From: a virus
Direction: 5' to 3' (one strand)
IMG/VR virus record: IMGVR_UViG_3300037245_000888
Span: 32,001-96,000 of that record
Length of the DNA: 64,000 nucleotides
This document shows positions 3,130 to 60,937 of the stretch, one piece after another. The stretch's first letter is position 1. Every line of letters starts with the position of its first letter. The notes beneath the pieces are model-generated. The model ran no database searches, was not told the DNA's origin, and was given only the letters and a program-made list of their open reading frames with translations. A program made the position numbers and the translations under genes.

Positions 3130-3197
3130 TAAATCAGAAGTTAAGATAATTAAACAAACAGATCACAACAAACAATAATAATATAGTGGAGGTAGTT

Positions 3198-4076
3198 ATG
3201 AGTGAGAGTATGTTAATTAAATCAAATTTGGTAGATGGTTTCGTGAGCTTCAAAATTAAAATTAATGTATTAGATAAAACAATATCAGAATATAAAGCAA
3301 GTGTAGATAAATTTATCATTTGGTTACAAGATCAGGATAATGCTAAACTTGACAAGTCATCTACTGATAATATGTTGGTAAGTGTAACTCGCAAGATAGC
3401 GCAATCGTATGTGTTTGTAATTAGAGAGACATTGAAATTTAATAGCACTAAGAAAGCGATAGCAGGTATTCTTCAACTTTACAATTTTATCATGATGGAA
3501 ATGGATTTACTTGGAAATGCTTTTAGTGGATTACAGGTGCCAAAGGATAGTGTTACTGAAATTAAAGAATACATTTCATTAAAGGAATCTAATATAATAT
3601 TAAATTCATGTGAAAGTACTCAACACAGATTACTAATTGGACTGGCTTTTAAATCTGGATTAAGAATTCAAGAAATTTCTAAAATTGAAGTCGCTAATAT
3701 TGATTTAGAAAACAAAACGATTGATGTATTGAGAAAAGGTAGACGTATGCGTAGATTAGATATTGCTGCTGAATTAATTAATGATTTAACTATTCAAGTT
3801 GAGAATTGTAATGCACTTAATCACACCTTCTTATTTCAAGGTAGAAGAGGTATTAAGCCATTGACAACCAAATCTATCAGAGATACTTTTGATGGTTATC
3901 TTGGCAAACTAGACTTGAATTCTGACTACGTATTCCATAGTTTAAGAAAGGTTTATAGTACAGATTTATATTATAATGAGAATAAGACAATGCATGAGAT
4001 AAGTAAATTATTAGATCATAGTAATACCGGAATTACTGAATTGTATGTTTTGGATAAGAAGTATGTTGAGCTATAA
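3198..4076 (+). CDS. Tyrosine recombinase (XerC/D-like integrase/resolvase)
   Basis: Catalytic set GLRIQE, RKG, HSLR, LDH, TELY. GGAGG RBS before ATG 3198. Confidence 0.9.
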   Translation: MSESMLIKSNLVDGFVSFKIKINVLDKTISEYKASVDKFIIWLQDQDNAKLDKSSTDNMLVSVTRKIAQSYVFVIRETLKFNSTKKAIAGILQLYNFIMMEMDLLGNAFSGLQVPKDSVTEIKEYISLKESNIILNSCESTQHRLLIGLAFKSGLRIQEISKIEVANIDLENKTIDVLRKGRRMRRLDIAAELINDLTIQVENCNALNHTFLFQGRRGIKPLTTKSIRDTFDGYLGKLDLNSDYVFHSLRKVYSTDLYYNENKTMHEISKLLDHSNTGITELYVLDKKYVEL

Positions 4077-37970: not shown

Positions 37971-38327
37971 TTAATATTTTGAGCCATTAATATATAGTTT
38001 AGCTCCTAAATCGTTACTTAGCTTAATTCCTCTAACCTGAACACCCGCAATAATTAATGTTTCTCCAGCTTTGCAACAGATTACAGGTTCATCTGTATAG
38101 TCCTCTGTTGTTGGGTTATCAACGGAACTTCTAACAATAACAAAATAAATGTCTGTTGCGTCTGCCTCAATAGTTGTGCTATTAGCATTTAGATTCTTAT
38201 CATCCTTTGTCAAGAACATGATCAATTCTTGGTCTACTAACGTTTCATAAAATCTGTCCAATACTGGTGCTCCATCGTATTTTAGTGTTGAAAAAAGTGC
38301 TCTCGCGTACAATTCTCCATAACTCAT
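37971..38327 (-). CDS. Hypothetical (possible virion) protein
   Basis: GGAGG RBS; first gene of the post-lysis module. Confidence 0.65.
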   Translation of the reverse strand: MSYGELYARALFSTLKYDGAPVLDRFYETLVDQELIMFLTKDDKNLNANSTTIEADATDIYFVIVRSSVDNPTTEDYTDEPVICCKAGETLIIAGVQVRGIKLSNDLGAKLYINGSKY

Positions 38328-38425
38328 GTAAATACCTCCATCTCCGCCTACACGGTATTTTATTTATATAAATAACACAATTGTTATTATATCTAATTTA
38401 ATAATTTAATATTTAACTATATCCA

Positions 38426-38480
38426 CAAACTTAAAAATACACCCACAGTTGTTAACCACGAATGCATTTCCTCAAGTTTG
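38426..38480 (-). other. Long G-U-rich RNA hairpin (processing site, terminator or ncRNA element)
   Basis: 25-bp stem with 8 G-U pairs that folds well only on the - strand. Confidence 0.6.
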
Positions 38481-38514
38481 TTATTGCTTATTTAATTTTA
38501 ATATTTATTAGTTT

Positions 38515-38590
38515 TAATCGCTTCTAATCGCTTCTAATACCATACTAATGTATTCTAATACTATCGACCATAATCGACCGCAATCGATTG
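38515..38590. repeat. Helically phased short direct repeats
   Basis: TAAT at 38515/25/35/46/56 (TAATCGCTTC twice); ATCGA at 38563/73/83. Confidence 0.6.
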
Positions 38591-38607
38591 GACGATACTT
38601 GATACTA

Positions 38608-39018
38608 CTAAGCAAATAAGTATATTACTTGAATAGCACCACGCATAATTTTCTGATCACTTTCAGACAATTCAATATCCATTTCTGTTAAAATCTCAAT
38701 TGCTCTTGTCATTACATCTTCCTCAGAAACCATTTTACTTCCTTCAAGTATGATACATGACTGAATATATTCAAGGCTATCGTGAACTACTCCATTAATC
38801 AAACTAATAGTCTTATAATCTAAATCAGTATTATTCTTTAATAGACTAGCTGTGAAATTTAATATAACTTGTAAGTCATCAATTTTATCAGCTGTATTTT
38901 TTGGATTGTCAATAATACCTTTATTTTTTAATACTAAAATTGTAACTGATATGATAAACAATACGGCCACTGTGATTAAGCCTACGGTGCTTGTATCTAA
39001 TCCTAAGTTTTCTAACAT
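38608..39018 (-). CDS. Holin (LL-H-like, N-terminal TM)
   Basis: Single N-terminal TM and C-terminal AIEIL..MDIELSESD..IMRGAIQ; downstream of the endolysin. Confidence 0.6.
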   Translation of the reverse strand: MLENLGLDTSTVGLITVAVLFIISVTILVLKNKGIIDNPKNTADKIDDLQVILNFTASLLKNNTDLDYKTISLINGVVHDSLEYIQSCIILEGSKMVSEEDVMTRAIEILTEMDIELSESDQKIMRGAIQVIYLFA

Positions 39019-39084
39019 AATAATCTCCTTTTATTGTATAGTTCATTATTTGGCGTTATCGGTTCGTTGTTAATTCCTTATTTG

Positions 39085-39435
39085 TTATCCATTTTTAGTA
39101 TTCATATCATCAGCTACTTCTTCTAATATGCTATTATTTGAATCAGATAAATCTATTTCAATTCCCATTGATTTAGTTATATTTTTTAATCCCTTGTCTA
39201 CAATAGTATTGACAAGTTTTGTTTTTTCAATTGTTGCTTTACCTGAATATAAGAATAATTCAAACATCCATCCCTTTGCAACCCAACTAAATATAAACTC
39301 AAGTTGTTGTATTTCATATCCTTTTATGAATAAGTATCCCATTGCAAGAATACACGATACAAAGATAATATTAACTATCCAAAGGAGTTTTTTACTAGTG
39401 GCATATTTCAATATTTTTTTAAATAATTTCTTCAT
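39085..39435 (-). CDS. Putative holin (2 TM)
   Basis: Basic N-terminus, TSKKLL, two TMs and a charged tail; directly after the endolysin. Confidence 0.6.
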   Translation of the reverse strand: MKKLFKKILKYATSKKLLWIVNIIFVSCILAMGYLFIKGYEIQQLEFIFSWVAKGWMFELFLYSGKATIEKTKLVNTIVDKGLKNITKSMGIEIDLSDSNNSILEEVADDMNTKNG

Positions 39436-39446
39436 TTTATTCTCCT

Positions 39447-41381
39447 TTAAAACTTAACCAATTGATAAAGTCTTCTCGTTGTTGTATAATACCAAACACC
39501 ATCAACCTTCAATAATGTTGAATTTCCTGCATCCCAGCTATTAATAAACCCGAGAACCATAGCCTTACCCATTCTGGTAGCTGTTTTATTACTCATATAT
39601 GGGTGTACAGCAAAATACAATTCACCGTTAAGTTTAAAGTTATAAGGTCTTTTAGTTGCTCTAATTACATCTGCATATTTACCAGTGAATCCTGATGTAG
39701 CATATGCACTTGTTGATGGATATAATTCAAGTCCAGCATCAGCGAAAACTACACCATTGCCTAATTCCTTTGCGTTTAATACAGTTTTAACATCAAAGTG
39801 TTTACCACCTTTTGAAAATAGCGTAAAAGTAGGTTTATAATGCACCTGTCCGTCAAGTAATAATTTACCTTTTGTCATTGTAATTCCATACTTATACATT
39901 TTTCTTGCTGTAGGAGAATACCATTGATAACTTGAAGTAATTAAATTTGATTCAATATACCTATTACCAGCCTTATCTCCAATTGTAATATCTAATCTAC
40001 TTGGATTAACCTTAACAACTATTGATGTATATTTACTATTTTTAGGAATCTTCCAAGACTCTGTTCCATATTTACCATTGTGATATTTATGAAAATCTAA
40101 TATAAGCTTTTTATTAATTTTAAATATATCATCTTCATTTAGAGTATTTCCATGTGAAGATAGTCCAATTTCAGCTTTCAAATCTTTAATTCCTAATATA
40201 GTACCATTGCCTTTTTTCTTATCACATGAGAATGCTCTATAATATCCAAGTGATTGTAATGCTCTCTGTAAGTATAATATTTGACTAGATTTGAATGAAC
40301 TGGTTTTATTATAGTTGATTACACCCTTATAAACTAATTGTGGAATAGCTTTGTTATATAGTAGTACCTCAGACTTCACCACAGCCTCACCACTGTCATC
40401 AAATGGTTCACTGGTAATAACTGTTGGCTCATCAATAACTACTGTCTGAGAGGCTATTAGAGCTGTATTAATAGCTGTAGCAATATTCTCTGTAATTTTA
40501 TTATTATACCAAATATTTAATGGTTTACAGAAATTATATAATGCTGTTGAAAGACCATTACCATAAGATTTATCTAATCCATTTACATCAAATCCTAATT
40601 GAGTTAATGCTTTCTGAACTTCTAATACATCATCAGAAACTTCACCTTTTAATATATCTCTTCCAACATACATATATAAAACTTTAATAGTATAAGGCTC
40701 ATATGGGTCAATAAAATCTTTAATATCATCAATTGTTTTCTTTTCTAAGTCAGTAAATTTCTCACCTGACATTTTAATTTTAATGTTGATTCTTTCTCCT
40801 GTCATATTTTCTCCTTTTTTAGATCCTTTTTTAATCTCATATAAACTTTTAACATCTTGTAAAAATACATTCCACCTACTATAATCCACTTTATTATATT
40901 CTGGACAATAATATTTAGGACAATCTTTACCTGATATAATCCCATGATTTGTTACTTTATCTAATCCTAAATTATATTCAATTAATAAGTCAACTGTTCT
41001 TTCTACCATTATAAAATACACGATATCAGAATAGTTTCCTTTCATGTTTATTGTTGGAACTTCAATTGAATATACAACAGAATTAGGGTAAGTGTCACCC
41101 ATCATATTATATTTTTCTTTTGTGTATGTTTTGGAGCCTACACTATATGCCATTTCATTGTCTGGTATAACTTTCCAAACATCACCATTAGTATCAATTA
41201 TTTCATGAGCTGATCCATAGCTTTTCTTACCATATTTTCTTGATTCAAAGAAGTCTCTTACAGCGGATGCTCTTGCATTAATAACAGCCTCCCAATGAAC
41301 ACATATAAATTTAACCTCAGCTTTCTTCTGTGGCCTACTCCATTTATTAGGAGTTAAATATTTTTCTATTACTTTGTACAT
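39447..41381 (-). CDS. Endolysin: Amidase_2 + two PG-binding-like domains + C-terminal phosphodiester-glycosidase-like domain
   Basis: ICVHW, SAHEIID, EMAYSVG, SIE, H...GKDCP; DVLEVQKALTQLGF..DKSYG and LQRALQSLGY..DKKKG; NSWDAGNST. Confidence 0.85.
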   Translation of the reverse strand: MYKVIEKYLTPNKWSRPQKKAEVKFICVHWEAVINARASAVRDFFESRKYGKKSYGSAHEIIDTNGDVWKVIPDNEMAYSVGSKTYTKEKYNMMGDTYPNSVVYSIEVPTINMKGNYSDIVYFIMVERTVDLLIEYNLGLDKVTNHGIISGKDCPKYYCPEYNKVDYSRWNVFLQDVKSLYEIKKGSKKGENMTGERINIKIKMSGEKFTDLEKKTIDDIKDFIDPYEPYTIKVLYMYVGRDILKGEVSDDVLEVQKALTQLGFDVNGLDKSYGNGLSTALYNFCKPLNIWYNNKITENIATAINTALIASQTVVIDEPTVITSEPFDDSGEAVVKSEVLLYNKAIPQLVYKGVINYNKTSSFKSSQILYLQRALQSLGYYRAFSCDKKKGNGTILGIKDLKAEIGLSSHGNTLNEDDIFKINKKLILDFHKYHNGKYGTESWKIPKNSKYTSIVVKVNPSRLDITIGDKAGNRYIESNLITSSYQWYSPTARKMYKYGITMTKGKLLLDGQVHYKPTFTLFSKGGKHFDVKTVLNAKELGNGVVFADAGLELYPSTSAYATSGFTGKYADVIRATKRPYNFKLNGELYFAVHPYMSNKTATRMGKAMVLGFINSWDAGNSTLLKVDGVWYYTTTRRLYQLVKF

Positions 41382-41382
41382 A

Positions 41383-41493
41383 TTACCTCCTTTTACAATC
41401 CAATCTATTCAAAGCCATTGTAACATATTCAATTAACAATGTAAAGAACATGTTGGCTATATTTTTCAATTTAATAAGAAAAGGGAATTTCAC
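41383..41493 (-). CDS. Possible 36-aa hydrophobic peptide between agrB and the endolysin
   Basis: GTG overlaps the agrB TGA (GTGA). Open frame MKFPFLIKLKNIANMFFTLLIEYVTMALNRLDCKRR* fills the gap exactly and stops 1 nt before the endolysin ATG. Confidence 0.35.
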   Translation of the reverse strand: MKFPFLIKLKNIANMFFTLLIEYVTMALNRLDCKRR

Positions 41494-41873
41494 CCTAATC
41501 TATTTTTCTTTTTTCTTAATACTACTCCAGCAATATATCCTAATGGAATAGCTAACCACCATATAATGAATGAGCTTATTAAGGCTAATCCGATTATTAG
41601 GATTGTTGATACAATAAAACATTGCCACATTTCTGGCATGTGTACACCCTTTCTACCTACTCTGGCCAATATAAAAAATAACATTGCTAAAATAGATTCA
41701 GGGACTACACCGAGCATAAATGCTATACTCATAATGAATGTTGTCTCGTAAACTTGGAACATTGACATATCAATAAACATTGCCAGATATTTAGTATCCT
41801 CTGGCATATTATGTTTATCACATATTTTCTTTGCTAATTTGTAGTAAATTGTGTTCTTTCTGCTTTTACTCAT
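41490..41873 (-). CDS. agrB: AgrB-like membrane peptidase (short form, 127 aa)
   Basis: Multi-TM protein. ARVGRKGVHMPEMWQCFIVS gives R71-x6-H78-x6-C85, the same spacing as R70/H77/C84 of S. aureus AgrB. Adjacent to an AgrD-like peptide. Confidence 0.8.
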   Translation of the reverse strand: MSKSRKNTIYYKLAKKICDKHNMPEDTKYLAMFIDMSMFQVYETTFIMSIAFMLGVVPESILAMLFFILARVGRKGVHMPEMWQCFIVSTILIIGLALISSFIIWWLAIPLGYIAGVVLRKKKNRLG

Positions 41874-41967
41874 AATCTGATAAATCTGTTTCTCCGACTA
41901 TCCAAAAACATCCAGTTTTACTTGTTAGTCCTAATAGTCTCTTAATAAGTTCCATTAATTTTTTCAT
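41866..41967 (-). CDS. agrD: AgrD-like cyclic thiolactone autoinducer propeptide (33 aa), not in ORF track
   Basis: GGAGG RBS; MKKLMELIKRLLGLTSKTGCFWIVGETDLSDYE* has an amphipathic leader, a C-FWIV core and an acidic tail. Its stop overlaps the agrB start. Confidence 0.82.
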   Translation of the reverse strand: MKKLMELIKRLLGLTSKTGCFWIVGETDLSDYE

Positions 41968-42424
41968 ACTTTCCTCCAAGTCTCATATAGGTTATATAAC
42001 AAATCATATATTGAAATAGTCTAACAGGAGTATAAAATATTATAGTGGAATATATACTTTCTTTTACTGGCGATATATCACTGCCAAGAATATATAGAAT
42101 CGGCACATATATTATAAACTCCATGACTCCAACAATCACTATGGCTATAGCTGTATTTAAAAATACTTTTAGTGCTTTTTCTTTGTTTACTTTGCTTAGG
42201 AAAGATATTGTTAATCCGGCCAATGCTAGATAGACTAATCTATTTAATATGCTATCACTACCAAATGGTAATAATATTAGCCCTAACACAGAACATATTA
42301 ATATTGATATGATTGTGTATTTAGTCTTAATATTTATCTTTGAAAACATTAATGTCATCAATACTACAAATGTTGCTTCAAAGATTTGTATACCGATAAA
42401 GTCTGTTAACCAGATGTAATTCAT
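41942..42424 (-). CDS. Multi-TM protein resembling an AgrC/VirS sensor domain without the kinase
   Basis: About 5 TMs with intramembrane Glu (IFEAT, VMEF). No H-box or ATPase domain. Lies immediately upstream of and overlaps agrD. Confidence 0.6.
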   Translation of the reverse strand: MNYIWLTDFIGIQIFEATFVVLMTLMFSKINIKTKYTIISILICSVLGLILLPFGSDSILNRLVYLALAGLTISFLSKVNKEKALKVFLNTAIAIVIVGVMEFIIYVPILYILGSDISPVKESIYSTIIFYTPVRLFQYMICYITYMRLGGKYEKINGTY

Positions 42425-42978
42425 AAAATCAGCTCCTTTAACATAATTAATATATCAAAGAAAGTTTTGCCACCTGATGTAAAAAACGAGAATATACTAA
42501 CCAACAGTATAATTGACATTGTTACTATAAATCTACTTATCCATTTGTTTAATTTACTTTTGTTGTAGAACAACCTAAATTGATCTCTCAGGTTATTATT
42601 CTTAATCTCAGCTTTCATACCTTGTATTTCATTTAATATCAAACCTACTGATCTTTTCAAATCATCTTGTTCTCTACTTGATATAAATTGATTAGCTAAG
42701 ACTTGAGCATTGTTTTCTAAATATTCTTCTAGCTTACTACTTATTTCATCGATAGAATTTGAAAGCTTACCAATAACATCTCTATCTTCTTGACGATTAT
42801 TTTTCATCTCTTTGAGTTCAAATCGAATTTCAGTTATTTCAAGTTGCATTTTATGAAAAGTATCAACAGTTATCATACTTCCTTTTACATGGTCTACTTC
42901 CTGTCTTAATAATTTTATTTCATTTTCAAGATTATTGATTTTGCTCTTGTTAGCCTCACCAATACATTTTTCAGTCAT
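42421..42978 (-). CDS. Coiled-coil protein with C-terminal TM (XhlA/hemolysin-like lysis accessory)
   Basis: Long heptad region then one TM; first gene of the lysis region; ATGA overlap with the next gene. Confidence 0.55.
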   Translation of the reverse strand: MTEKCIGEANKSKINNLENEIKLLRQEVDHVKGSMITVDTFHKMQLEITEIRFELKEMKNNRQEDRDVIGKLSNSIDEISSKLEEYLENNAQVLANQFISSREQDDLKRSVGLILNEIQGMKAEIKNNNLRDQFRLFYNKSKLNKWISRFIVTMSIILLVSIFSFFTSGGKTFFDILIMLKELIL

Positions 42979-42997
42979 TTGTCATCACACCACCTCA

Positions 42998-44065
42998 CTA
43001 TATCTTCTCTATATCATAATTCAACTGAAGAGAGAAGTTTGGTGTTGTCACGCCTTCCCCATTTACAACTTTGATATATACATCGTCATCTTTGTCTATT
43101 AAACCGTCAATTATAACTAAATCTTTTGTTTCATTTTTAGTTGGGAATAATTCTAAGTCAGTAAAAGTTGTATCAGATATAATATCAGAGCCTTCGATTA
43201 ATTGTAAATTTGAAGTATTGACATCATCTATTCCAATACTATCTCCATTGCTGATTATTTTAATTCCTGTGATTGTACATGTGTAACCATCTGGTGCCGT
43301 GAATAATATTCTGTGTATTGCTATATCTGGTGGATTAGAGAATGATGGAATATCAAATACTATCATTTGATTTGTGCTGTCTTTTAATATTGCAATTAAT
43401 GACACATATTCCTCTTTCATATCTGAAAATTCTGATGTGCGTGTTGACTCATTAGATTGTCTAGTTGACTCATTAATTGTTCTAACGCCCTCATTTACAG
43501 TTCTCTGAGTTTCTTTTTCCTGTCTAGTATCTTCACTAGCAATTCTAATATTCTCACTAGATACTCTTTCTGATTCTTGAAATACTCTATCAATTTCTGA
43601 TGCTTCACGCTCATCTTCTTCAAAAGATATATTAGATAATTTAGAAATCAAATCACTAACTACTGAAACTTTGTCTTCATTAGATAAAGTACATCCATTC
43701 ATCATATCTGCCAATACAACAAATCTAAATATATTACTTGTGACAATTTGACCACTGGCAGTATATAATTTTATTAAACCTGTGACTGAACCACTTTTAC
43801 TTAATGATTCATTACATAATTCATATGTTATTGAGTCTGAATTTAATATGCATAAACATGGTTCCATATAAGTTGCATCTTGGAACTTTAGAGTAATATA
43901 AACTTCGGATAGTTCAGAGTAATTAATCTCCGAACCATCTTCTCTGGTAACTGTAAAGACTAGCTTACCAACTCCATTGTCATTTTGACTGAAATATCTT
44001 CCAGTATTAATAGATCCAGATGAGTTTATTTTTAGCTGGATTGGTATAGTTTCTATTGAAATCAT
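42998..44065 (-). CDS. BppU-like baseplate upper protein
   Basis: N-terminal FSQNDNGVGKLVF (DUF2479-like) domain and E..R heptad coiled-coil repeats. Confidence 0.65.
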   Translation of the reverse strand: MISIETIPIQLKINSSGSINTGRYFSQNDNGVGKLVFTVTREDGSEINYSELSEVYITLKFQDATYMEPCLCILNSDSITYELCNESLSKSGSVTGLIKLYTASGQIVTSNIFRFVVLADMMNGCTLSNEDKVSVVSDLISKLSNISFEEDEREASEIDRVFQESERVSSENIRIASEDTRQEKETQRTVNEGVRTINESTRQSNESTRTSEFSDMKEEYVSLIAILKDSTNQMIVFDIPSFSNPPDIAIHRILFTAPDGYTCTITGIKIISNGDSIGIDDVNTSNLQLIEGSDIISDTTFTDLELFPTKNETKDLVIIDGLIDKDDDVYIKVVNGEGVTTPNFSLQLNYDIEKI

Positions 44066-44074
44066 AAATACCTC

Positions 44075-44398
44075 CTAATAAGGATTGTTTTCTGAATCGT
44101 ATTGCAACCAAATTTGCTGTCTATTTAGTTTGTCTTGCTCAGTTTTCATACCGAGAAGGATAAGATTATCTAGTTCTTTTAAGTCTGTGAGTGCTATTTG
44201 TTTTTCTGCTTCATAAAGTTGGATTGCTAGTTCCTGCTCTGTTCTAATTGTAGAAATTTCACATTCTATTTTATTTCCGAACATCTTTTCACCTTGTATA
44301 TAACTATATGAAACTTCGAGTTCTAAACCTGTCAAATTAGGATTCATTTCTAAAATTTCAGCACCTGTTAATATACCTTCAAATATTATCTTTTTCAT
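44075..44398 (-). CDS. Putative tail fibre assembly/chaperone protein
   Basis: Small gene directly after the fibre gene. Confidence 0.45.
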   Translation of the reverse strand: MKKIIFEGILTGAEILEMNPNLTGLELEVSYSYIQGEKMFGNKIECEISTIRTEQELAIQLYEAEKQIALTDLKELDNLILLGMKTEQDKLNRQQIWLQYDSENNPY

Positions 44399-44406
44399 AT
44401 TGCCCC

Positions 44407-45621
44407 CTAATTATCTTTTTCATATTGAACAACTTGTTCTGCAACACCAGTGTTCTCAGCATAAATCTTTAACTCAGAGTTAAATCTCCACTTTGCACGT
44501 ACCGCATTTGTTCCAATATCACTATCAAATACCACAACTCCATCACATTCAATTTTAATCGCAAAAGCAGTGCTACCTATTATAACATTAACAAATCCAC
44601 TATCTACTATAGTGGTTAGGAGTGAATAACCAGCCCCAACAGCATCGTTACCATTAAATTTAGGTGTTGATTTCTTAGGATCTCCACTTCCATCATCTTC
44701 TGAATAAGATATTCCATATGGAGAAGCTGCGCATCGGTATTCAAAACCAGTTTCACACCTTATGTCGCACCCTGTCTGCGTTAAATTCACAGTACCATTA
44801 GTTACACCAGAAAATTTTTCTCCATCATCACCATCTATTTTTAATTGTACATCACCGTTAGATCCTGTCATTGTACCCAACCAATGAATCCAACAAGCAC
44901 CAACAAAAGTATGCCTTAGTGTAGGTGAACCAGTACCGGGTGTTCCAACATTATATGCTTGTGCAAGAACTTTTGATAAATCATTTGCCCCACCTTTAGG
45001 ACTAAGCAAGAAAAAATTGCCAGTCACCCTCCTTAAAATGGTTATAGGTGTTCCGTCAACAAAGTCATCAGCTTCCATTGGTATTACTCCACCAGCACCA
45101 TCTGGTTTGGATATTGCTACTGCTCCATGACCATCTAGATTAACAGTGACAGCACCAGTATTATTAGCTGTTGGTATGAATGTGATTGGATTTAAGTCTA
45201 TCGTAAAATCAAAACTTGAAGCCGTTCCACTTGTTAAGATAATAGCGTCTGCTGTACCTGTTACTACTGCACCTGTTCTTAGGATATCAATGTTGTCTAG
45301 GTTGATAGCTATATCTGAAATATTAATTAAAATATCAGATTCATTATCTTCAATTGAATCTTTCATAATCGTATAATCCGTATCAGCGTATATATAATCT
45401 TGTAGGTTGGATGGAGCTTCTGTAAATAATAAAATTGCTAATCCAGCTTCTCCATTATTATCCTGACTTGAGCCAGCAGTATTAGTTACAACTAAAGTGT
45501 CTGGATTTTCATATGAAACATTTGTAGAGGTACTTCTACCGAATTTATTTAATATTCTCTGATACTCGCCTAATTCTCCCAATAAACTGTCCGGAATGGG
45601 AAACCTATTTTCTAAAGGCAT
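44407..45621 (-). CDS. Tail fibre/receptor-binding protein
   Basis: FIPTANNTGAVTVNLDGHGAVAI fibre motif; Gly/Thr-rich. Confidence 0.65.
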   Translation of the reverse strand: MPLENRFPIPDSLLGELGEYQRILNKFGRSTSTNVSYENPDTLVVTNTAGSSQDNNGEAGLAILLFTEAPSNLQDYIYADTDYTIMKDSIEDNESDILINISDIAINLDNIDILRTGAVVTGTADAIILTSGTASSFDFTIDLNPITFIPTANNTGAVTVNLDGHGAVAISKPDGAGGVIPMEADDFVDGTPITILRRVTGNFFLLSPKGGANDLSKVLAQAYNVGTPGTGSPTLRHTFVGACWIHWLGTMTGSNGDVQLKIDGDDGEKFSGVTNGTVNLTQTGCDIRCETGFEYRCAASPYGISYSEDDGSGDPKKSTPKFNGNDAVGAGYSLLTTIVDSGFVNVIIGSTAFAIKIECDGVVVFDSDIGTNAVRAKWRFNSELKIYAENTGVAEQVVQYEKDN

Positions 45622-45661
45622 GTTTGCCTCCTTTCTGTATTTGTTGTTTCTTTAATTTAGT

Positions 45662-45976
45662 TTATTTTGCTTCTTTTATTGTTGCATCTGATAAACTGCC
45701 AGTCCACGAAACAATATATACCTCTTGATTCGCACTGAGAGTTTCCCATGTTTTATTTTTCATACTAATTGGTGTACTAGTTTGGTCACCATTCAGCCAA
45801 AGCGATGCAACGGAATTAGGGGCTATCGCAGGACTACCAGTAACAACTTCTGCTACCCAAGTCCTTGGTACTCTCTTCATCCTAGCATTAACTACTTTAG
45901 TGGCTATATCAGATATTAAATTTATTAATTTGTTTGCGCCACTATTACTATCATTTTTACTTTTGTTTAATATCAT
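45662..45976 (-). CDS. Baseplate/tail-tip small protein
   Basis: Synteny between the hub and fibre genes. Confidence 0.5.
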   Translation of the reverse strand: MILNKSKNDSNSGANKLINLISDIATKVVNARMKRVPRTWVAEVVTGSPAIAPNSVASLWLNGDQTSTPISMKNKTWETLSANQEVYIVSWTGSLSDATIKEAK

Positions 45977-46006
45977 ATTAGCCTCCTAAGTTTTGTAGTA
46001 AACTTG

Positions 46007-47140
46007 TTATAAGTCAATATCGAATGTGTCAACAACTGTTAGTGACATTGGACTGTTTGTGAGTGGCATCGTAATTCTATCTAATAAAATCCTTTTACCA
46101 TTCGCATCCTGTCTTGAGTCTGTAGCTGTCACAACGTGATCTACATCTAAGTGAGGTAAAATCATAGATGTGATATTACCTTGAGTTAGAACATTAGTTT
46201 TTCTTTTTAGTTCGTAAATACCTCTTTGCTCACAAAGGGCAACTGAATATATAATGCTATCTTTGACTATTTCTAATATTTCTATACCTAAATTTCCAAT
46301 ACTTGTATCAGAAAGTAGGTCGTTATTTTGAACATTTTTTCTAACTGTAACTCCTGAAATATTATCACCAATTACAGTTATAGAATTCACAACTTCATCT
46401 AAATTATATTGAGTATTTCCAGATACATAATTTGTTTCATCTTCAGAATCAGCGTCAAAGTCCCAAATCGATCCCTTCGAGGAGTCCTTAGAATCTTTTT
46501 CAAAAACAAGACTGCCTCCAGTATTATAGTATACATTGCATGAAAATGCTTGTGCAAGTTCAATTAAAATCTCTCCAAGATTTGAACCTTCCTCTTTTAC
46601 AATCTGATAAGGTATATTCTCTGAATCAATAGTTGTATCTATTATAACATCACGAGGATCTTGTGATATTGACATCACTGTTCTAATTGCTGTTCCAAGT
46701 GTCGTTGATGATGGGATTACTAACGTAAAGTCAATTTTGCCAGCCAAGCTACCATTGAGCAATGAGAACTTATCTTGCATTGAAACTTTAACTGAATTGT
46801 CTGGATTCACGACTGGTTTGTCATAGACAAACGTGCCCTGTTTTATGAAATATTCCTCTCCATTTATCAGGTAACCGAGTGATAATCTACCCTTTTGTGC
46901 CACCCATATTCCAGAATCTAAACTAGGGAAGAATTCATTCAATGTATTATCAAACGAAATGTCCAAAGTTCTCCTAACTCCATTACCATTAGATATATTT
47001 AAACTTCCTTCTAATCTTAATTTTGAAGTAATTTCTCTTAAAGGAGTTTCATCTTCTTTTCTCAACATTTCAAACTTTACAAGGGGTTGTCTTATTCTGT
47101 TGTTTTTTACAAAGTCTAAATAATCTTGAAAACTAATCAT
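46007..47140 (-). CDS. Tail-tip/baseplate hub protein
   Basis: VRRT, SMQDKF.LL, LGEIL.ELA....VYYN..G.L, N.ITVIG, PHLDV.HVV pattern. Confidence 0.65.
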   Translation of the reverse strand: MISFQDYLDFVKNNRIRQPLVKFEMLRKEDETPLREITSKLRLEGSLNISNGNGVRRTLDISFDNTLNEFFPSLDSGIWVAQKGRLSLGYLINGEEYFIKQGTFVYDKPVVNPDNSVKVSMQDKFSLLNGSLAGKIDFTLVIPSSTTLGTAIRTVMSISQDPRDVIIDTTIDSENIPYQIVKEEGSNLGEILIELAQAFSCNVYYNTGGSLVFEKDSKDSSKGSIWDFDADSEDETNYVSGNTQYNLDEVVNSITVIGDNISGVTVRKNVQNNDLLSDTSIGNLGIEILEIVKDSIIYSVALCEQRGIYELKRKTNVLTQGNITSMILPHLDVDHVVTATDSRQDANGKRILLDRITMPLTNSPMSLTVVDTFDIDL

Positions 47141-48293
47141 TTGAGATTACCTCCTTTATTACTTTTTCTAGGTCTGGGATATCATAAAAACATTCAGTAT
47201 ATCCAGCAAATTTTATTTTTGGTGTTGACTTAAAATCGTTGTACGCTCTTAGCAAGTGACGTTCTAGATCCCACATTAAAGCTCCATTCTGAGATTCAAT
47301 AATCCTTACTTCTTTATAAAAATATGGCAAACTTTTAGTTTTTATTTTATTGCTATGATATCTTGCTTTTATTGTAGTATGAGTTTTACCTATTTTATAA
47401 AAGGTTTCTCCAGTCAACTCATCATAACATTTTATTATATAAACTTTAAATGTTTTGCTTTCATTAGATTTTTCTTTTCCTCTTATCCATTTTGTTTTTG
47501 TCCACCCTGTATTTTCCAGTGCACATCTAGGGCATCCATATCCGCTGTATAAATCTTGGTAAGTAGGATTCCATTCATGTCCGCATATGTCACATTCACA
47601 ATCTAGTTTAGAGTAGGCGTTGATATATTCTTTTGATTTTATTATTATTGTAGGAGATGTTTTATAAATAGTGTCTTTAACTTCTTTTAGTGTAAGATTC
47701 AATGTTCCAGCACACTTTCTGCACCCGTGCCCAGCTTTTAATGAACGGGCTACAGTCACCCAAACATGTCCATCAATTAGACATTTTACTTCAAACCCAT
47801 TTCTACCATCAGTGGTTCTTGCTACCCTTAAAATTTCAATACCATTGTTAATTAATAGCATATCTCGCCTAATGTCATCTATGTTTACTGGTAGATTTCC
47901 AGCGCAACTCGGACAGCCGGCACCAGATTTTAACGTATCCCATATTGGATTCCAATCATAATTACATATTAAGCACGTGCAATCCAATGGCTTATCTGAA
48001 CCCATGTATTCTTTTGAGTTTATTTTGATAGTTGAGCTTATATTTTTTAATTCTTCTTTTATTCCTTTTAACGTTCTTCTAGCATTTAATCCACCTTGTT
48101 TTTGTCCACACAATTGACATCCAGCCCCTTGTTGAAACCTATTCCATCTTTGCTTAAATGGCTTATTGCATATTTTACAAAAACAATCTAGATCTTTTAT
48201 CGCTCCAATATATTCTTTAGACAAAACAGATACACTTGGAAAATGTATAGCAAGATATGCCACTATTTCTTCTAAAGTTTTCTTTCTCGCCAT
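47133..48293 (-). CDS. Free-standing GIY-YIG-like homing endonuclease with four zinc-ribbon repeats
   Basis: Four ~65-aa repeats C..C/H...GC..C, then VYIIKC..FYKIGKT..RY..GYTECF. Confidence 0.75.
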   Translation of the reverse strand: MARKKTLEEIVAYLAIHFPSVSVLSKEYIGAIKDLDCFCKICNKPFKQRWNRFQQGAGCQLCGQKQGGLNARRTLKGIKEELKNISSTIKINSKEYMGSDKPLDCTCLICNYDWNPIWDTLKSGAGCPSCAGNLPVNIDDIRRDMLLINNGIEILRVARTTDGRNGFEVKCLIDGHVWVTVARSLKAGHGCRKCAGTLNLTLKEVKDTIYKTSPTIIIKSKEYINAYSKLDCECDICGHEWNPTYQDLYSGYGCPRCALENTGWTKTKWIRGKEKSNESKTFKVYIIKCYDELTGETFYKIGKTHTTIKARYHSNKIKTKSLPYFYKEVRIIESQNGALMWDLERHLLRAYNDFKSTPKIKFAGYTECFYDIPDLEKVIKEVISND

Positions 48294-60007: not shown

Positions 60008-60883
60008 CTAAACTAGAGAGCTAAAACATTCTGTGTATCCATGAAAATGTAATTTTGGCTCATATGAGTGTTTATTCTCTTCGTGCATTTTATTTTCTAA
60101 ATATACTGCATCATATAAATTTGTGTAAATTACATCTATTATCCTGTATCTATATGGCATAGCATTTCCTCTGAATCTCCTTTCTATAGACGTAGTTGTT
60201 AGACCTATTTTATAGAAATTTTCATCATCATTCCAACATTGTATTGTATATACCTTTGCAGGTTTTTCTAACCATATTTCTTTATTTCTTTCAGCAGTTT
60301 TGATGTTATATGCACCTTCATGAGATTCTCTCGAACATTTTAAACAGCCTCCGCTCTCTATATGATTGAGTGGTTCTTGCACAAATTCACCGTGAATTGG
60401 ACAGATGATAATTACTTTATCTATATTGTTTTTATATTTTACTTTTGTATAGTCATATTTTTCACCATGAACTTCTTTAGCCATACTAACCCAATATTCA
60501 GTTTTATTTATTGCTGATAAAATATGGAATTTACTGCCATTAAGTAAATTACTTGGAATTACCTTACAGTATCCATGCTTTGTTCCAACAATAACTTTTG
60601 TATAGTTGTTAACATATTTAACCTTGCTATAATCTAAATTCAGATCTCCGTGCACTTCTTTAACCATGTTAATCCAGTACTCCGTTTTATTGATTGAGTT
60701 TCTTATTGTAGGACTCACGCCTGACAGTAAGCTATCTGGTCTAATTTTGCAATACCCATATTTATTCCCTATAATTATTTTAGTATCACAGTTAATGTAT
60801 TTTACTTGGTTATAGTTTAAGTCTGAGTTTTTATGGATGATTTTAGCTTCTTCGATAAATTGTTCTTGTGTTTTACGTCTCAT
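60008..60883 (-). CDS. Free-standing GIY-YIG-like homing endonuclease with DUF723-like repeats
   Basis: Three KT.....AKEVHG..YDY.KVKY.N...KV.I repeats, CPIHG..GCLKC, VYTIQC..FYKIGLT..RRF..GYTECF. ATG 60883 follows a GAGGA RBS. Confidence 0.75.
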   Translation of the reverse strand: MRRKTQEQFIEEAKIIHKNSDLNYNQVKYINCDTKIIIGNKYGYCKIRPDSLLSGVSPTIRNSINKTEYWINMVKEVHGDLNLDYSKVKYVNNYTKVIVGTKHGYCKVIPSNLLNGSKFHILSAINKTEYWVSMAKEVHGEKYDYTKVKYKNNIDKVIIICPIHGEFVQEPLNHIESGGCLKCSRESHEGAYNIKTAERNKEIWLEKPAKVYTIQCWNDDENFYKIGLTTTSIERRFRGNAMPYRYRIIDVIYTNLYDAVYLENKMHEENKHSYEPKLHFHGYTECFSSLV

Positions 60884-60937
60884 TTCCTCTACCTTCCATT
60901 TTAAAATACACATACTTTAATATATTTTAGTAAGTTT

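Follow-up and report, generated by a model that had tools for sequence, protein, structure and literature searches.

A candidate miniature AgrD/AgrB-like pair in the tail and lysis gene region of a large marine-sediment phage

We describe a 33-codon ORF in a large phage that probably encodes a miniature AgrD-type substrate of mini-AgrB, a 127-aa homolog of the AgrB-type cysteine peptidase/cyclase whose gene overlaps the end of the ORF. The phage record is 111,832 bp long, has direct terminal repeats and contains 31% G+C. In the window, i.e., the whole 64,000-nt stretch of this record that was analyzed, four genes overlap head to tail, encoding a 185-aa coiled-coil protein, a 160-aa membrane protein, the product of the small ORF and the 127-aa AgrB-like protein (Table 1), and upstream of this cassette lie tail-fiber and other tail genes. 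We file the cassette as an AgrD/AgrB-like miniature variant, not as a curated AgrD member, because neither curated AgrD profile matches, the tail is short and has no PxxP, and the phage record contains no AgrC-type kinase or LytTR regulator. The window DNA was found in a single sequencing run, a marine-sediment metagenome that is probably its source and whose contigs show no variants, and the sequencing-run search returned no RNA run matching the window.

Table 1. Positions in the window of the cassette genes, the parts of the small peptide and the adjoining features.
Feature	Position	Strand	Remarks
185-aa coiled-coil protein, C-terminal membrane anchor	42421..42978	(-)	First cassette gene; ATGA overlap with the next gene
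160-aa membrane protein, five predicted helices	41942..42424	(-)	agrC position of an agrC-agrD-agrB order
Shine-Dalgarno GGAGG	41973..41977	(-)	5 nt before the ATG of the small ORF; read directly in the sequence
AgrD-like propeptide gene, 33 codons	41866..41967	(-)	ATG at 41967; TAA at 41868-41866
Leader, residues 1-19	41911..41967	(-)	Amphipathic helix at residues 2-12, then conserved LTSK linker
Predicted ring CFWIV, residues 20-24	41896..41910	(-)	Cys20 predicted nucleophile, Val24 predicted acyl donor
Tail GETDLSDYE, 9 residues	41869..41895	(-)	Predicted to be cleaved off by mini-AgrB, by analogy with the S. aureus site between M32 and D33-E34
Mini-AgrB, 127 aa	41490..41873	(-)	Four-helix membrane core and N-terminal amphipathic helix; R71, G76, H78, C85
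Promoter-like site TTTACA, 17 nt, TG-TACAAT	41417..41445	(-)	Between the AgrB-like and endolysin genes
Endolysin, Amidase_2 and PG_binding_1	39447..41381	(-)	About 110 nt downstream of the cassette

The Small ORF and Its Counterpart in a Related Phage

The sequence-only reading had placed a short ORF preceded by GGAGG at 41866-41967; the ORF is found there, on the minus strand, and its translation is identical to the one given. That reading also called the ORF hidden, which turned out to be wrong, since there is a public gene call with exactly the same 33 residues. A 5-mer Shine-Dalgarno site of the GGAGG kind precedes 71% of the long ORFs in the window. The first 26 nt of the ORF are shared with the 3' end of the 160-aa membrane-protein gene, and its last 8 nt (ATGAGTAA) hold the start of the AgrB-like gene. 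The adjacency to AgrB that had been claimed is real, but the AgrB-like gene lies downstream of the ORF, not upstream, and is half-size. Starting at a TTG instead of the ATG would lengthen the product to 37 aa; such a frame spans the GGAGG and is not kept in the related phage described below. Across both window strands, 316 ATG-started ORFs encode 25-60 aa, and a Shine-Dalgarno site combined with a Cys or Ser, four hydrophobic residues and a tail occurs in just one of them, the 33-codon ORF. A word-based protein search with a 41-residue read-through query, in which the upstream TGA was read as W, matched only the window's own 33-aa call, and a search of the ESM Atlas with the 33-aa peptide gave no usable match.

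The one homologous locus recovered, L004, came from a GTDB scan and lies on a contig of 25,435 bp (G001:C24) in a metagenome-assembled genome (MAG). The sequence of this contig identifies it as part of a divergent related phage, syntenic with the window phage along its length and with 71-74% identity in a tail-fiber protein and 24-42% in the other shared proteins. The gene order at L004 is the same as in the window cassette. At positions 3901-4005 it contains a 34-codon ORF, whose ATG aligns with that of the window ORF, which has its own purine-rich ribosome-binding site, and whose stop overlaps the AgrB start (ATGAATAG) by the same 8 nt as in the window. Between the two loci, the small peptide is 52% identical, AgrB 42%, the coiled-coil protein 35% and the membrane protein 22%, and all four overlapping genes are intact in both phages. 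The small ORF shows a pN of 0.32 against a pS of 0.61, and seven residues that are identical in the two peptides are written with different codons. The C-terminus of the 160-aa protein, whose gene the small ORF overlaps, is not conserved at L004. By this comparison, in which conservation of the small ORF is read from a single homologous locus, the 33-aa peptide appears to be under purifying selection.

Further searches for relatives covered several collections. IMG/VR scans with mini-AgrB, its short AgrB relatives P0002 and P0003, the alignment A2, the endolysin and the conserved tail-fiber protein as queries returned no related locus, nor did two JGI metagenome scans, and among 50,697 phage records nothing was matched by blastn or tblastn with the cassette region and mini-AgrB. 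P0003, one of the closest short AgrBs, is encoded on a 94-kb Logan contig that probably belongs to a related phage. Genomes around the MAG of L004 (G001) at the family, order, class and phylum levels held no additional short AgrB. The two loci also have in common a short AT-rich stretch (window 41382-41489, minus strand; L004 4364-4480), one frame of which translates as PFLIKLK; the ORFs of 36 aa and 33 aa in these stretches were not kept as proteins.

Taken together, we regard the 33-codon ORF as very likely a coding gene, since its pattern is met once in 316 ORFs and the same ORF, start and overlap are kept at L004, which makes it more than a chance frame.

Mini-AgrB Belongs to a Family of Short AgrB Proteins

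Mini-AgrB matches the Pfam AgrB family (PF04647) with 52.6 bits (E 4.6e-14) over profile positions 3-101 of 185, where the curated cut-off is 23 bits, and the homolog at L004 reaches 39.7 bits on the same profile. The spacing of its Arg, Gly, His and Cys residues is identical to that of R70, G75, H77, and C84 in S. aureus AgrB, which are required for peptidase activity (PMC10196373). Searching 1.8 billion representatives exhaustively with HMMER yielded 23 relatives of mini-AgrB, of which the closest are all short (121-148 aa). R71, G76, H78, C85, and also S89, are invariant in an alignment of 12 short homologs, down to ~20% identity. These short AgrB proteins come from metagenomes and end at a basic patch (e.g., LRKKK).

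Compared with full-length, six-helix AgrB proteins of ~190-210 aa, mini-AgrB lacks the C-terminal third (profile positions 102-185). Aligned with a 188-aa AgrB, it covers residues 20-142 and stops where that protein has its basic loop, the positional equivalent of the K129-131 loop of S. aureus AgrB. An AF2 model of mini-AgrB is compact (pLDDT 89.8), with an N-terminal helix followed by four long helices and the catalytic loop at residues 72-81. Sequence searches of the PDB found no AgrB homolog, a Foldseek search of the PDB with the mini-AgrB model gave no significant match, and a word-based protein search with mini-AgrB matched only itself. Because of the short homologs, the invariant catalytic residues and the confident model, we consider mini-AgrB to represent a distinct family and not a local truncation. 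We know of no enzyme of this length that has been shown to work, and of no defined catalytic role for the C-terminal helices of AgrB.

Leader, Predicted Ring, and Tail of the Peptide

The N-terminal part of the peptide is strongly amphipathic. The hydrophobic moment over residues 2-12 is 0.84 in the window peptide and 0.64 in the L004 peptide, and the amphipathicity value of the leader is reached by 1.6% of shuffles. The LTSK linker that follows is identical in the two peptides.

The register of the CFWIV ring is plausible from the pattern of residues. CFWIV aligns with SFLWL of the L004 peptide, in which Phe21 is kept and each other ring position after the first has a hydrophobic residue, while the Cys20 codon TGT is replaced by TCT (Ser). 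The Cys, whose conservation had been proposed as a check, is therefore not strictly kept, the one homolog having Ser. To our knowledge, Cys and Ser are the sole two known nucleophiles of autoinducing peptide (AIP) rings. Ser makes the lactone ring in the S. pseudintermedius AIP and in GBAP (PMC3673130), and the Cys-to-Ser change fits a lactone ring in the relative. Nevertheless, this match is only modest evidence, because Ser accounts for two of the seven non-stop single-base replacements from TGT and the comparison involves one sequence.

Nine residues follow the predicted ring in both peptides, and E26, L29, Y32, and E33 (tail positions 2 and 5 and the final Y-E) are invariant. The window tail has neither Pro nor a PxxP motif, and in this respect the sequence-only reading was accurate in describing a short precursor with an unusual Pro-free tail: the AgrDs read for comparison are 48-53 aa long and most have xQxxxPxE-type tails, against 33 aa here. 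The acidity of the tail, by contrast, did not bear out as a conserved property, with a net charge of -4 in the window peptide vs. 0 in the L004 peptide. S. aureus AgrD is cut between M32 and D33, and D33 and E34 are essential for its cleavage by AgrB (PMC10196373). With a five-residue ring, the predicted cut in the window peptide would precede Gly25-Glu26. The AgrDs read beside AgrBs of full size have Q as the second tail residue, which supports the same cleavage register.

Neither the window peptide nor the L004 peptide was matched by the AgrD models Pfam PF05931 and NCBIfam TIGR04223, even at E values up to 10, with the 48-aa AgrD of MAG G489 as a positive control for TIGR04223 (50.4 bits, 1.6e-13). 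A complex prediction of mini-AgrB with the peptide gave a score of 0.02, a value obtained without control runs and given no weight for or against the pairing. The AgrD-like identity first proposed for the ORF product thus survives in part: the architecture and the translational coupling to an AgrB homolog with its catalytic residues speak for it, but no curated AgrD profile matches.

Neighboring Genes and Phage Context

The 160-aa membrane protein could be a sensor without a kinase, a decoy, a stand-in scaffold for the missing AgrB helices, or unrelated to the peptide. In a structure search of the ESM Atlas, it came closest to HATPase_c_5 proteins of 450 aa, in their N-terminal part (TM by query 0.75), and two more kinase clusters were among the ten matches listed. 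This makes a kinase-less AgrC-type sensor possible, as a lead only. The protein had no family match and no longer relatives were found; comparisons with AgrC by BLASTP and hhalign gave nothing significant, and a Foldseek search of BFVD with its model gave no significant match. Both the HATPase_c_5 kinase (AgrC) and the LytTR regulator (AgrA) are absent from the 111,832-bp phage record.

The 185-aa coiled-coil protein matched no Pfam family at the curated cut-off. An XhlA-like identity was considered for it and rejected, as there was no XhlA match in Pfam. At the place equivalent to the promoter-like site between the AgrB-like and endolysin genes, L004 has TTGACA and TATACT, and in both phages the promoter-like site ahead of the endolysin gene is a strong one. 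Two small membrane proteins encoded 3' of the endolysin (38608-39018 and 39085-39435, both on the minus strand) have no Pfam or PHROG family, and no Rfam family was found in window positions 38000-46000.

Elsewhere in the window, a tyrosine recombinase is encoded at 3186-4076 on the plus strand (Phage_integrase, 4.7e-24), with integration or dimer resolution as its possible function; lysogeny is possible because the phage has this gene. The phage also carries large replication genes and nrdD. Genes of HNH/endonuclease families (47133-48293, minus strand, phrog_681; 60008-60913, minus strand, phrog_559) are inserted among the structural genes.

Proposed Mechanism and Alternative Explanations

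We hypothesize that the peptide would be processed as follows. The amphipathic leader (residues 1-13) would anchor the peptide on the inner side of the membrane, where mini-AgrB (Cys85, His78, Arg71, Gly76) would recognize the nine-residue follower via Glu26 and cut after Val24 to form an acyl-enzyme. Attack of Cys20 on the acyl-enzyme would then give the five-residue thiolactone CFWIV, or, in the relative, the Ser lactone SFLWL, and a peptidase of the host or of a neighboring cell would remove the leader. If this left no exocyclic residue, a homodetic cyclopeptide would form from the thiolactone by rearrangement. The peptide would be produced late in infection and released by export or lysis; late production is proposed because the cassette sits among late tail and lysis genes. 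Any role of the product in signaling is likewise hypothetical, as is the agonist or antagonist action on a host agr system that the sequence-only reading suggested.

Rather than being cyclized, the peptide may be a real, conserved small protein that acts in linear form, as a membrane-active or regulatory lysis peptide, or a substrate that mini-AgrB merely trims; we consider this unlikely. Its amphipathic helix might act on the membrane, on a holin or on the 160-aa protein. Such a role would be in keeping with the strong amphipathicity of the leader, with the location of the ORF among late and lysis genes adjoining the endolysin, and with the lack of a curated AgrD profile match. The enzyme is relevant here as well: mutants in the K129-131 loop of S. 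aureus AgrB keep peptidase activity and lose AIP formation (PMC10196373), and mini-AgrB ends at the equivalent loop, without the helices beyond it. However, the stop/start overlap with a catalytically complete AgrB homolog is conserved in both phages, and a simple membrane-active peptide would have no need of a position held only by Cys or Ser, four hydrophobic residues after it and a Glu as the second tail residue. We therefore prefer an AgrD-type substrate.

It is also conceivable, though unlikely in our estimate, that the four genes form a private cyclic-peptide module of the phage, built into the late/lysis region, in which peptide set free by lysing cells would be sensed through the 160-aa protein in other infected or lysogenic cells and would either time lysis or bias the choice between lysis and lysogeny. 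If this were true, the module would be a counterpart of arbitrium built on agr chemistry, and would define the minimal AgrB catalytic core.

Alternatively, the pair could be a decaying remnant, a truncated and inactive AgrB together with a shortened AgrD, captured from a host and no longer functional. The partial coverage of the AgrB profile (positions 3-101 of 185 only), a peptide shorter than the 45-53-aa AgrDs described or read, and the lack of a kinase or response regulator in the phage are as expected of a remnant. We nevertheless find decay quite improbable: short AgrBs of 121-148 aa make up a family with invariant R, G, H, C, and S residues, four overlapping genes have stayed intact in two phages whose neighboring proteins are only 22-42% identical, the peptide appears to be under purifying selection, and the AF2 model of mini-AgrB is confident.

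Finally, an untranslated frame open by chance in the gap and overlap of two real genes is very improbable, even though the ORF is short and shares 34 of its 102 nt with its neighbors, since a ~33-codon frame free of selection at 31% G+C is estimated to be open in ~6% of cases, start and stop are kept in the relative with 52% peptide identity against 22-42% for the flanks and pN below pS, both loci have a ribosome-binding site, and conservation does not extend to the C-terminus of the 160-aa protein, where its gene overlaps the ORF.

Possible Host

The MAG that holds the L004 contig was considered as a guide to the host and rejected, the bin probably being wrong. A strong Shine-Dalgarno sequence precedes ~4% of the long ORFs in the MAG, compared with 71% in the window and ~37% on the L004 contig, and the MAG encodes LpxC (476 aa) and no Spo0A. 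On both counts, the far heavier use of Shine-Dalgarno sequences by the contig and the diderm character of a MAG with LpxC and no Spo0A, the contig is probably mis-binned. AgrB was found in none of 400 sampled genomes from the phylum of this MAG and in 2 of 254 genomes from its order. Heavy Shine-Dalgarno use, low G+C content and a lysin with Amidase_2 and PG_binding_1 domains point to a Bacillota-type host, as we infer from these features of the phage.

Novelty and Implications

Phage-borne agr genes are already known, from phiCDHM1 and from unannotated gut phage contigs. New here are the small size of both enzyme and precursor, a gene without a kinase domain at the place of agrC, the location of an agr-type cassette within a late tail/lysis operon in a large phage from marine sediment, and the Cys/Ser switch between two relatives. 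The production of agr-type peptides by phages appears to extend from the gut Clostridioides example to this large phage of marine sediment. A signal factory free of kinase and regulator in the late/lysis region may address the agr system of the host, other bacteria or other phages.

If the pair works, it would set the minimal AgrB at a four-helix core of ~120 aa ending at the basic loop, and the minimal AgrD at 19 leader, 5 ring and 9 follower residues, with no PxxP in the follower. A natural half-size AgrB, if functional, would also make the enzymology and structural study of AIP synthesis easier. Further cassettes of this kind are probably under-annotated, as the class escapes the curated AgrD models.

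Comparison with Known agr and Peptide-Signaling Systems

The S. aureus system resembles the window pair in the R-x4-G-x-H-x6-C arrangement of AgrB and in an AgrD whose leader is amphipathic, whose ring has five residues (as predicted for the window peptide) and whose second tail residue is acidic; in S. aureus, cleavage depends on that residue (PMC10196373). It differs in having an AgrB with six helices and ~189 aa, an AgrD of 46 aa with a 14-aa tail, and the gene order agrB-agrD-agrC-agrA. The agr1 locus of C. difficile, which consists of agrB1-agrD1 only, is similar in that a signal pair occurs without a cognate kinase or regulator in the locus (PMC8534292; PMC3901668), whereas it is chromosomal and encodes full-size proteins. 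The arbitrium system (AimP/AimR) is a possible functional analog, given that a secreted peptide encoded by a phage could report infection to neighbors. However, its chemistry and proteins are unrelated, a linear hexapeptide acting on a cytoplasmic receptor, and no receptor was identified here.

Full-size agr genes are found in other phages. A tblastn search with a full-size AgrB matched 18 phage records, most of them unannotated. Nine of these were opened, and AgrB was full length in all nine, with an AgrD-like ORF beside it in five; none of the opened INPHARED phage AgrBs was short. The AgrB-bearing INPHARED records include MT835721, MT836121, MT836496, MT838776, and PV036441. Human-faecal contigs make up 15 of the 18 records, and the seven of these contigs that were opened had no annotation; in Ruminococcus phage NatCom_29429, the AgrB gene carries the annotation hypothetical.

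Four contigs of faecal phages (MT835721, MT836121, MT836496, and MT838776), like the agr locus of MAG G489, have agrD directly 5' of agrB and abutting or overlapping it, so the order seen in the window is a normal one. The rings read in these five loci are CNWLY, CAYIF, CMWYF, CIWYL, and CFVFM, the AgrDs are 48-53 aa long with Q at tail position 2, and the AgrBs have 188-208 aa. The tails of G489 and three of the phage contigs are of the xQxxxPxE type, with 15-16 aa, and the fifth tail has 17 aa with Pro one place later. The window pair resembles these loci in the agrD-agrB order, in a Cys followed by four mostly hydrophobic residues and in a polar Q/E residue at tail position 2, but it differs from them in its 9-aa tail and the absence of Pro, and it lacks the profile match that the G489 AgrD, the one tested, has. 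The G489 locus (G489:C92, L006, 1477-3469, minus strand) comprises agrC (371 aa), agrD (48 aa, CFVFM, TIGR04223 match), and agrB (188 aa). Its contig is small, the MAG carries LpxC, and the order is otherwise without AgrB (2 of 254 genomes); the locus could represent contamination or horizontal transfer into a diderm.

The agr3 locus of the Clostridioides difficile phage phiCDHM1 encodes an AgrD of 45 aa, an AgrB of 197 aa and an AgrC of 453 aa and adjoins lysis genes (Hargreaves et al., 2014; PMC3901668). Its parts are of full size, its AgrD has PxxP and its AgrC a kinase domain, whereas the window phage has a 33-aa AgrD-like peptide without Pro, a 127-aa AgrB and a 160-aa protein without a kinase encoded in the agrC position. 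Despite these differences, the two are alike in being phage-borne cassettes of the agr signal-production type that have no response regulator and are located next to lysis genes.
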